The notes: a model not told the origin generated them from the sequence alone. Counted from the first letter of the stretch, positions 36,753 through 39,808 are shown. The stretch is DNA of 64,000 bases from Anaeromyxobacteraceae bacterium (GCA_047602405.1 JASGHJ010000002.1:1440001-1504000); one strand, 5' to 3'. Made by a program: numbers and translations.

Positions 36753-37727
36753 TCACCGGCCCGCGTGGCGGGCGAGGAACTCGACCGCCCGCCGCTCGGC
36801 CCAGAACGAGGGCCAGAACGGGAAGCCGCTCACGAAGCCGACGTGCCCGCCGGCCGGCGTCACCTCGAGCGTGACGGCCGGGTTCGCGCGCGCCGCCTCG
36901 ACGGACCTCGCGTCGACCGGCGCGATCGGGTCGTCCTCCGCGCAGATGGCGAGGAGCGGGCGGCGGACGCCGGCGAGGAACCGCCCCGACGAGCAGCGCT
37001 GCCAGTAGTCCTCGGCGGAGGCGTAGCCGTGGATGCGGGCGGTGACGACGCCGTCGAAGTCGGAGAAGGTGCGGGCCGCACGGATGGCGGGGACGTCGAA
37101 GATCTCCGGGAAGCGCGGCGCCTTCGCGAGGGCCTTCCCGCGCAGGCGGCGGAGGAAGCGCTCCCGGTAGACGAGGTTCCAGAAGCCGGGCGCGTCGAGC
37201 GCGCGGGCGCAGCGGGAGAGGTCGAGCGGCGGCGAGATCGCGACCGCGGCCCCGAGCTCCGCGGGGAGGTCGTCCCCGCGCTCGCCGAGATACTTCGCGG
37301 TGACGTTGCCGCCGAGCGAGAACCCGGCGAGGAGGAGGGGGCGGCCCGGCCGCTCCGCGGCGAGGCGCGCCACGACGTGGCCCACGTCGCCGGTCTCGCC
37401 CGAGTGGTAGAAGCGCGCGTGGCGGTTCTCCTCGCCGGAGCAGCCGCGGAAGTTCACCGCCACCGCCGCGAGCCCGCGCGCGCGCGCGACCGCGACGAGG
37501 CCGCGGACGTAGGGCGCGCGCGACGAGCCCTCGAGGCCGTGGAGCACCACGAGCACCGGCGCGTCGGGGCCGTCGCCCGGCGTGCGGTCGACGTCGAGGA
37601 AGTCGCCGTCCGGGAGCTCCCAGCGCTCGCGGACCTGCGGGGGGCGAGGGAACGGCCGCGCGACGCTCGCGTACACGGTCATCGTGTGGGCGCCGGGGAG
37701 CCAGCGCGCGGGGGCGTAGTCCGTCAT
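36753..37727 (-). CDS. YheT-family alpha/beta hydrolase
   Basis: [25 protein letters not shown] and GGHVGF motifs; ATG 37727 overlaps the stop of the Tgt fusion. Confidence 0.9.
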
Positions 37728-39808
37728 GTGACCCTGCTGCCAGGGTGGGGCCCCGACGAGCTCTGCTCGGCGGGGCGGGGCGCGCCGAGCGCCCCGGAGG
37801 CACAGAACTGGGGCGACGCACGGACCCGCTCCAGCGCATCGGGCGGCGCGTCGGGCGGGAACGGGGCCGAGGACCGGGCGACGCGCTCGAGCCAGCGGCC
37901 GTCGAGCGGCCGGGCGAGGAGCGCCCGGTCCGTCGCGGCGGCGGTCGTCTCCTCCTTCGGCCCGGAGGGATCGCCGTGGCCGACGGCGAAGCCGCCGAGG
38001 AGGAGCGCCGTGCGCGTCGCGGTCGCGGTCGAGTAGGTGTAGAGGACCGCGCCGTCGTTGCAGCGGGCGCGCAGCGCCCGGAAGGCCTCCACCGACCAGG
38101 GCGCGGCGTCGGCCCGGGGCGAGAAGGGATCCCAGAACACGACGTCGGCGCGGGCTCGCTCGGCGGGGAGCGTGTCGAGGAGGTCGCCCATCACGAGGCG
38201 CCACCGCACCGGGCCGCGCTCGAACGCGCCCCCCGCGAGGAGCGCCCGGCAGGCCTCGAGGTCGGACGGCGAGAGCCCCATCCGCACCGCGCCTTCGTCG
38301 CTCGCCGCGAGCTCGAGCGCGCCGAGCTCCCGCTCGAAGCTCACGACCTCGAGGCCCCGGCCGCGGACGGCCTCCGCGGCGCGGATCGCCGCGAGCGCGT
38401 TCGAGGCGGCGCCGAGGCCGACGTCGAAGAGGACGAGCGGCGGCCCTTCTCCGGCGAGCCGCTCGCGCAGGCGCGACTGTCCCACGTAGAGCCGCTCCGA
38501 CTCGACGGCGGCGCCGACGACCGGGTGCATGACCTCGCCGACCTGGGCGTCGCGCACCGCGGGCGCGCCCTGGCTCGTGACGACGATCTCCCAGCGCGGG
38601 CCGCCGGGCACCGGCGGCGCGAGCGGCGGACGCTCGGGCGCGGGCGGCGGAGGGGCGCGGCGACCGGGGGGGCGCGCCGAGGTGTCGTGCTCGTGCCGGT
38701 CGAGCGCCGCGAGCGTCTCCCGTGCGAACGCCGGGTACCGCCCGGCCTGGATGGCCGCGCGGGCGTTCGCCATGAGCGACGCGTAGTGGTGGAGGTTGTG
38801 GATGGAGAGGAGGCGCGGCCCGAGCGGCTCCTTGCACTTCACGAGGTGGTGGAGGTAGCCGCGCGGGTGCTCGCGGCAGGTGGGGCAGCCGCAGGCCGGG
38901 TCGAGCGGCCGGTCGGAGGCGAGGTGCTCGCCGCGCGTGAGCCGGACGCGGCCCGTGGACGTGAACGCCGTGCCCTGCCACGCGAGCGTGGTCGGGAGCA
39001 CGCAGTCGAACATGTCGACGCCGTGGCCGATGGCGATGAGGAGATCGGCCGGGGTCCCGACGCCCATGAGGTACCGGGGCCGGTCCTCCGGCAGGAGCGC
39101 CGTCGTCCGCGCCATGACGTCGCCGCGCTCCTCCCGCGTGTCGCCCACCGCGAGGCCGCCGATGGCGAAGCCGTCGAAGGGGTGCGCCGTGAGGAAGCCC
39201 GCCGACTCCGCCCGGAGCGCGGGGTCGAGGCCGCCCTGCACGATGGCGAAGAGCGCCGCGCCCGGGTCCTTCCGCGCCGCGAGGCTGCGGAGCGCCCACC
39301 GGTGCGTGCGGTCCATCGCCTCGCGCACCTCGGCGGCGGGGGAGGTCGAGGGCAGGCAGACGTCGAGCACCATCATGACGTCGGAGCCGATCGCCTCCTG
39401 GACCTCCACCGAGCGCTCCGGGGAGAGGACGAGCTCGCGCTGGTCGACGTAGCTCCTGAACCGGGCGCCCTTCTCGGTGATGACCCGGTCCTCGGAGAGC
39501 GAGAAGATTCGGAAGCCGCCCGAGTCGGTGAGCACCGGCCCGTCCCAGCGCATGAAGCGGTGGATGCCGCCCACCTGCCGCATCACCTCCGGGCCGGGGC
39601 GCAGGAGCAGGTGGTAGGTGTTCGCGAGGATGATCTGGGCGCCGGAGGCCTCGACCTCGTCGACGGAGAGGCCGGTGACCGAGGCGCGGGTGCCGACCGG
39701 CATGAAGGCCGGCGTGTCCACGACGCCGCGCCGGGTGTGCACGCGCCCGCGGCGCGCGGCGGAGGCCGGGTCGCGGGCGAGGAGCTCGTAGCGGACGGCG
39801 AAGCTCAC
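37724..39808 (-). CDS. tgt: tRNA-guanine transglycosylase fused to a C-terminal MnmC-like SAM-dependent methyltransferase
   Basis: [35 protein letters not shown] and CGCPTC..H; Pro-rich linker; then [24 protein letters not shown] and YTYS. Single uninterrupted frame of ~694 aa. Confidence 0.88.

Follow-up and report, generated by a model that had tools for sequence, protein, structure and literature searches.

The window analyzed here, a 64,000-nucleotide stretch of the genome of an Anaeromyxobacteraceae bacterium (GCA_047602405.1, JASGHJ010000002.1:1440001-1504000), encodes on its minus strand a protein in which a Tgt is fused to a methyltransferase (MTase) resembling MnmC2. The fusion belongs to a subfamily of Tgts that work with their own MnmC2-like enzyme, and this subfamily is real, widespread, and uncharacterized. 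To our knowledge, the four GUN tRNAs are regarded as the sole substrates of bacterial Tgt, whose reaction is a step toward queuosine. We give nearly an even chance to the reading that the pair places preQ1 in an RNA target distinct from the four GUN anticodons and then N-methylates the inserted base. More specifically, and more tentatively, we propose that this Tgt subfamily is old and separate and that, together with its MnmC2-like partner, widespread in Myxococcota and found in other phyla too, it might form an undescribed route to N-methyl-preQ1 at G34 outside the GUN set. If true, the set of tRNA nucleosides would gain a new member, and deazaguanine wobble modification would extend past tRNA Asp/Asn/His/Tyr; the pair would also provide a new target class for tRNA modification and an enzyme for labelling RNA at a different sequence tag.

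The fusion gene (37724..39808, minus strand) starts with GTG at 39808, ends with a TGA stop at 37726-37724, and is translated into 694 amino acids with no internal stop. The plus strand over the same interval is a shadow frame. The initial annotation had described an uninterrupted frame of ~694 amino acids made up of a Tgt, a proline-rich linker, and an MTase, and all the motifs that it named were located in the translation: DSGG (residues 95-98), GGLAVG (217-222), and FDCV (267-270) in the Tgt part, with the Zn site at C306/C308/C311/H337, and GEVMHP (424-429), DVGLG (462-466), WDPFSP (559-564), and YTYS (590-593) in the MTase part. A Pfam search assigned PF01702 to residues 17-368 and PF05430 to residues 530-625, both above the cut-off, and no other Pfam domain. 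AlphaFold predicted two confident domains in the whole protein, joined by a disordered linker at residues 375-398. The linker as a whole (residues 373-403, proline-rich from about 376 to 403; 38600..38692, minus strand) had low pLDDT, varied in length, and was absent where the Tgt and the MTase were separate genes. A complex prediction for the Tgt domain, the MTase domain, and SAM scored 0.10 against a mark of 0.32.

The distribution of the fusion, for which an HMM search had been suggested, showed that the combination recurs: both Pfam domains were present in 120 of the 120 best homologs listed, which were 656-729 amino acids long and came from several sources. Those of the listed homologs that carried an organism name were Anaeromyxobacter or Anaeromyxobacteraceae, including cultured Anaeromyxobacter species. 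A stop or frameshift in the linker had been a worry of the initial annotation, and a single contig of a relative (~93% alike) reads across it. The two-domain homologs and this linker-spanning contig rule out an assembly artefact as the origin of the fusion, which is a genuine gene architecture. A search of sequencing runs returned no run with the exact strain, listed no RNA run as a holder, and gave no holder above a share of 0.10.

The Tgt domain (residues 1-372; 38693..39808, minus strand) consists of a TIM barrel with the Zn site and scored 425.8 bits against the Tgt model TIGR00430 (cut-off, 306.75). Its predicted structure superposed on Z. mobilis Tgt (1efz) with an rmsd of 1.4 Å and a target TM of 0.95. 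We compared 95 MTase-associated Tgts (hereafter variants), picked by linkage except for four picked by identity and with fragments aligning over fewer than 300 residues dropped, with 32 canonical Tgts from the same phylum, Proteobacteria, Firmicutes, and Fusobacteria; Z. mobilis residue numbers were counted from an alignment. Residues D95, D149, C151, Q191, and G218 of the fusion correspond to D102, D156, C158, Q203, and G230 of Z. mobilis, and L219-A220-V221, M248, and D268 to L231-A232-V233, M260, and D280. All 95 variants keep D102, D156, Q203, G230, V233, M260, D267, D280, and the four Zn ligands; D102, D156, Q203, G230, and D280 serve catalysis and guanine binding (PMC5699537). The preQ1 pocket was nearly as well conserved, with C158 in 91, L231 in 91, A232 in 94, and V233 in 95 of the variants, and the equivalents of V45, T47, and D267 were retained in at least 94. 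C158 and V233 are the marks of a preQ1-type Tgt, which takes preQ1 over queuine (PMC3660597). The eukaryote-type queuine pocket (V233G with C158V) was not found among the variants, in all 95 of which the position of fusion V221 is Val. Judged by these residues, the pocket of the fusion is of the preQ1 type, and the Tgt domain is presumably active with preQ1.

By contrast, the motif after the nucleophile is altered, with R286-x-x-R289-N290 of Z. mobilis replaced by T274-x-x-W277-Q278 in the fusion (38975..38989, minus strand). Arg occupies the R286 position in 1 of the 95 variants and the R289 position in none of them, whereas both are Arg in 32 of the 32 canonical Tgts; the N290 position is mostly Gln among the variants. 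We take the PTRxxRNG motif (R286, R289, and N290) to form anticodon-loop contacts of Tgt, and K52, R286, and R289 to be the residues that read U35 and the nearby backbone. Two further changes relative to canonical Tgts, at K52 and E235, occur in the Anaeromyxobacter/Polyangia subclade of the variants. T45 of the fusion (39674..39676, minus strand) replaces K52, a position at which the variants have Thr (71 of 95), Arg (16), or Lys (7) and the canonical Tgts have Lys (31 of 32). D223 (39140..39142, minus strand) replaces E235, which presumably sits behind the peptide switch of Tgt and which is Asp in 71 and Glu in 24 of the 95 variants versus Glu in 32/32 canonical Tgts.

The variants and canonical Tgts also separated as groups. 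A quick IQ-TREE analysis (unrooted, no outgroup) took in 39 variants alongside all 32 canonical Tgts, and the two sets were split by one long branch with an SH-aLRT value of 100. The fusion Tgt is a paralogue distinct from the housekeeping Tgt. It shares with the bacterial enzymes (Z. mobilis 1efz/1q2r and E. coli 10fa/10fb) the fold, the catalytic Asp pair, the pockets, and the Zn site, at 44-50% identity, but lies outside the queA-yajC cluster, is additional to the canonical copy, and is fused or linked to an MTase. The GUN specificity of Tgt is conferred by the insertions Ins3 and Ins8 (PMC10164549), and the tRNA stem is contacted in the E. coli enzyme, away from the active site, by K285, R320, and R112 (PMC13416341). 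In our alignment, these three residues map to R289, K324, and R118 of the fusion, E. coli Y35 to R41, and E. coli K292 to L296, so that four of the five contact positions are basic. K292 is required for the activity of E. coli Tgt (PMC13416341), and the loss of this Lys in the fusion counts against the reading that we prefer, insertion of preQ1 followed by its N-methylation.

These residues also bear on the idea that the fusion modifies the same G34 of tRNA Asp/Asn/His/Tyr, part of which would be diverted to methyl-preQ1, perhaps conditionally. Such a role would fit the score above the TIGR00430 equivalog cut-off, the retained V45, T47, and D267 equivalents, and the Lys or Arg that 23 distant members of the 95 variants have where Z. 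mobilis has K52; it is at odds with the loss across the branch of R286 and R289, invariant in the 32 canonical Tgts, and with the retention of canonical tgt and queA alongside. We consider it improbable.

The initial annotation had raised the question of which queuosine and U34 genes accompany the fusion. The host genome (98.4% complete) contains a second, canonical Tgt, located by tblastn at C2:2793341 and 47% identical to the fusion Tgt. This stand-alone tgt lies behind queA and is followed downstream by three genes that we take, from their translations, to be yajC, secD, and secF. Genes for queG, queF, and queC are also present. In this assembly queF carries a one-base frameshift; it gave a single full-length match in 11 family members tested. 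Each of the four GUN tRNAs of the genome has an ordinary U33-G34-U35, which disposes of the notion that odd GUN tRNAs require a second Tgt; with all four ordinary and a canonical tgt at hand, GUN tRNAs do not call for another Tgt. As for the U34 pathway, mnmA is present, and searches for mnmG, mnmE, MnmC1, MnmM, and Elp3 gave no match above the cut-off in the host genome, of which the fused domain is the sole PF05430 match. The usual substrate of MnmC2 thus has no known source in this genome, and supply of a U34 substrate through Elp3 or MnmM was rejected, neither gene having been found.

The MTase domain (residues 404-668; 37805..38599, minus strand) was assigned as a class I SAM methyltransferase of MnmC2 fold from PF05430, its motifs, and its predicted structure, in agreement with the MnmC-like MTase of the initial annotation. 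It matched PF05430 with 60.9 bits (cut-off, 22) and reached a pLDDT of 96 when modelled alone. The nearest structure to this model was Aquifex MnmC2 (3vyw; Z 27.3 over 243 residues, 23% identity), followed by the E. coli MnmC domains (Z 24.3 and 21.5) and spermidine synthase (17.5). The motifs H...E, DxGxG..N, SFE, and D-x-[FY]-S-P are common to the domain and MnmC2/MnmD; H428, E436, D462-x-G-x-G, and N470 were invariant in 47 diverse members and D560 was present in at least 90%. The domain nevertheless differs from MnmC2/MnmD in three respects: it falls under the family cut-off, it is kept without MnmE/MnmG, and its distribution follows the second Tgt. Against the MnmC2 model NF033855, it scored about 72.8-76.2 bits (cut-off, 136), and four relatives scored 71.8-102.

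To describe the distribution, we drew 201 genomes of the phylum that were at least 90% complete. The MTase was matched in 105 genomes, 96 of them strongly (E at most 1e-40; G183 was counted here) and nine weakly, and the latter were set aside. Two or more Tgt matches were found in 96/96 genomes with a strong MTase match versus 4/105 of the others. In two of the four exceptions, the two matches seem to be pieces of a single gene broken between contigs. The other two have a variant Tgt with the MTase not detected; in one (G027) the variant lies at a contig end, and the assembly of the other (G174) consists of 800 contigs. The pair is thus present in about half of the sampled phylum genomes (96/201), where it is annotated plainly as 'Tgt'. 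The gene mnmG was present in 64 of the 96 pair genomes and lacking in 32, closed genomes included; 75 genomes had mnmG without a strong MTase match, and 30/201 had neither. Within the family of the window, none of 26 genomes gave an mnmG match and none of seven of these an mnmE match, and the presence of mnmE agreed with that of mnmG in the 24 genomes checked. The two-Tgt rule and the 32 pair genomes without mnmG indicate that the MTase tracks the second Tgt and not the U34 pathway, in counts that overstate independence because the genomes are kin (no statistic was applied). The pair as a replacement for MnmEG is ruled out by the 64 pair genomes with mnmG and the 30 genomes with neither.

A hand-picked subset of 52 genomes comprised 37 with the pair and 15 without it. 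PF05430 was matched in 37/37 of the former and 0/15 of the latter, seven of which carry mnmG. queA was found in 36/37 pair genomes and queF in 36/37, but queF was also found in 15/15 genomes without the pair and so does not discriminate. One pair genome, G050 (92% complete), gave a match to neither queF nor queA.

These data allow an assessment of the view that the MTase is an ordinary MnmC2, converting nm5s2U34 to mnm5s2U34, and that it was joined to Tgt merely for convenience, both being anticodon enzymes. Its fold and motifs do match Aquifex MnmC2, and TGT appears among the MnmC2 fusion partners in MnmAGE-encoding genomes (bioRxiv 10.1101/2023.12.21.572861). Moreover, the Tgt-linked MTase was the sole strong PF05430 match in the mnmG-bearing pair genomes tested, and MnmM was found in 0/30 genomes; with mnmG in 64/96 pair genomes, the MTase could therefore serve as MnmC2 there. 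An ordinary MnmC2 would not, however, be expected to be retained in 32 genomes without mnmG, to be missing as PF05430 from all 15 genomes without the pair, to score under the NF033855 cut-off, or to be partnered always with the paralogous Tgt and never with the queA-linked copy in the pairs inspected. We regard this view as very improbable. The mere coupling of G34 and U34 modification, which the initial annotation had offered as an alternative, is likewise unlikely for this family.

Gene order around the MTase was examined in two sets of loci. In the best 80 of 314 loci from named genomes, which included cultured Anaeromyxobacter, Nannocystis, and Sorangium strains, a Tgt was fused to the MTase in 30, adjacent in 41, and absent in nine. 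Five of these nine have fewer than 400 bases upstream; for the other four, the genome elsewhere holds a variant Tgt (66-69% identical) as well as a canonical one (50%). In every pair inspected, the linked Tgt was the paralogous one. In the best 80 of 490 metagenome loci, which contain more distant MTases, 15 were fused, 13 were adjacent, 16 were too short, and 36 had no Tgt at the locus itself; since these 36 have adequate upstream DNA, they make it less likely that the partnership is universal. According to Atlas clusters, which we use only as a lead, such MTases and a cluster of Tgt fusions belong chiefly to Verrucomicrobiota and Myxococcota. Stand-alone MTases occur in Verrucomicrobiota and Bdellovibrionota. 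Crude clustering, which included shadow frames, revealed no third partner gene recurring over the 160 loci beyond local Anaeromyxobacter synteny and no recurring neighbours of the dpd or DNA-modification type. Viral contigs and plasmids contained no match to the MTase, and a mobile or phage origin was rejected on this basis.

Tgt paralogues have repeatedly been found to write new bases, as DpdA does in DNA. A close known system is phage DpdA with DpdM (PMC10516641), which has the same logic and product as proposed here: a transglycosylase inserts preQ1, and a second enzyme N-methylates it. DpdM, however, is a DUF3109 metal-binding protein unrelated to the class I MTase of the fusion; its signature (DUF3109, CxxxCxxCC) was not found in the fusion, whose MTase domain has one Cys. 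DpdA acts on DNA and has an archaeal-type V/V pocket, whereas the fusion Tgt is of the bacterial tRNA type, chromosomal, and has an L-A-V pocket. The methylated preQ1 base that we propose has so far been reported only in virus DNA. The domain architecture itself appears in a 2023 preprint, 'Alternate routes to mnm5s2U synthesis in Gram-positive bacteria' (bioRxiv 10.1101/2023.12.21.572861), which names a TGT/MnmC2 fusion in one sentence and gives it no function. The main text of this preprint, which examined only MnmAGE-bearing genomes, uses 'TGT' once and 'preQ' never and contains no function, paralogy, or residue analysis. The initial annotation knew of no characterized enzyme of this architecture, which had already been listed, as uncharacterized. 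Our literature search, which covered few subscription journals, returned neither a characterization of the pair nor a report of methyl-preQ1 occurring naturally in RNA.

The intact guanine and preQ1 pocket, the RNA-binding surface with a rebuilt motif adjoining the nucleophile, and the MnmC2-like partner together point to preQ1 insertion followed by N-methylation. In the mechanism that we propose, the Tgt paralogue would exchange guanine for preQ1 in an RNA stem-loop predicted to be distinct from the four GUN anticodons, and the MTase would then use SAM to N-methylate the aminomethyl group of the inserted preQ1, as MnmC2 does to that group of tRNA nm5(s2)U, to give methyl-preQ1. The intact queuosine route, the separate paralogue, and the replaced PTRxxRNG motif make it probable that something other than just the wobble G34 of GUN anticodons is modified; the target would be a site other than U33-G34-U35, and our guess is that G34 of non-GUN tRNAs is the most plausible. 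Because methylation would block the amine needed by QueA, the product would be an end point, standing beside the queuosine that canonical Tgt, QueA, and QueG would still yield. Bacterial Tgt takes N-substituted preQ1 (PMC9561289), so preQ1 methylated in its free form would probably end up in GUN tRNAs as well, and methylation on RNA is favored over methylation of the free base. N-methyl-preQ1 does occur in phage DNA, where its maker is the unrelated DpdM (PMC10516641). The suggestion of the initial annotation that the fusion methylates preQ1 is thus upheld circumstantially, by the 96/96 co-occurrence with a second Tgt, retention without MnmEG, and the preQ1-type pocket; its placement of the modification at the GUN G34 is probably incorrect.

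The pair may also cooperate in another chemistry or order, such as the use of another deazaguanine, a pre-methylated base, base flipping only, a different amine, or a target in rRNA, other RNA, or DNA. We rate this as rather unlikely, although strict pairing indicates cooperation and is silent on the product. The E235D, K52T, R286, and R289 changes alter the surroundings of the active site, the MTase scores, at 72-102 bits, fall short of the 136 that the MnmC2 model requires, and Tgt paralogues have moved to DNA before, as in DpdA (PMC5699537). On the other hand, the residues lining the guanine and preQ1 pockets hardly vary, and the MnmC2 enzymes are the nearest structures by a wide margin (Z 27.3, 24.3, and 21.5 versus 17.5). 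A pre-methylated free base is disfavored in that canonical Tgt would likely use N-methyl-preQ1 too (PMC9561289), and a DNA target by the lack of recurring dpd-type neighbours in the 160 loci and of viral-contig or plasmid matches.

Some minor features of the locus were also recorded. An Rfam search of positions 30000-48000 of the window gave zero matches. Residue 100 (39509..39511, minus strand) is Arg in the fusion and Gln in 120 of the 121 sequences compared; its codon, which lies beside a GATC-like site, differs by a two-letter swap from that of the closest relative and also from the contigs of relatives in three runs. R100 may well be a consensus error in the assembly; a systematic error was not clearly visible in the genome-wide GATC and GAATC counts. 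The upstream neighbour of the fusion is a DTW-domain gene (39805..40422, minus strand; PF03942) whose stop overlaps the fusion start by four bases. DTW genes clustered at 6 of the 160 loci, making this gene a local neighbour and not a general partner.

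The gene encoding the fusion of a variant Tgt with an MnmC2-fold methyltransferase overlaps a neighbor at each end, and all three lie on the minus strand. Its start is overlapped by a DTW-domain gene (window 40422-39805) matching PF03942, a family of tRNA aminocarboxypropyl transferases; a DTW-domain gene adjoined the fusion in six of 160 loci, every one Anaeromyxobacter-type. Its stop is overlapped by the ATG of an alpha/beta hydrolase (window 37727-36753), whose C-terminus extends 20 residues beyond that of its closest homolog, and this tail is therefore local to the window. 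Also on the minus strand are a 493-amino acid ORF without a Pfam match, predicted to be lipoprotein-like (window 43205-41724), and an FAD-dependent oxidoreductase (window about 60407-61351), which matched MnmC1 (TIGR03197) weakly, at 62.7 bits, below the cut-off of 174.2.

In the window's own genome, a single-base frameshift divides queF (G000:C1:1622391-1622628). GATC-like sites lie next to both this frameshift and the odd codon for residue R100 of the fusion. Both the frameshift and this codon are probably consensus errors.

Genome G144 (loci L259, L266, and L274) carries one canonical Tgt and three variant Tgts, one linked to a methyltransferase and two without a methyltransferase in their loci. 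Among the metagenome loci of distant methyltransferases (L143-L222, the best 80 of 490), 36 methyltransferase loci lacked Tgt. Four variant Tgts from this set of metagenome loci have Val at the preQ1-pocket position C158 (Zymomonas mobilis Tgt numbering).

No match for mnmG was obtained in 62 of the 201 Myxococcota genomes drawn; within this draw, it was without a match in all 26 genomes of the window's family and in 15 of the 17 of family f14. Of the 37 pair genomes tested, 11 yielded a divergent QueA-family match (E 1e-34 to 1e-54) in addition to the first one, and in three closed genomes (G134, G147, and G187) the divergent match lies approximately 5 to 12 kb from queF.
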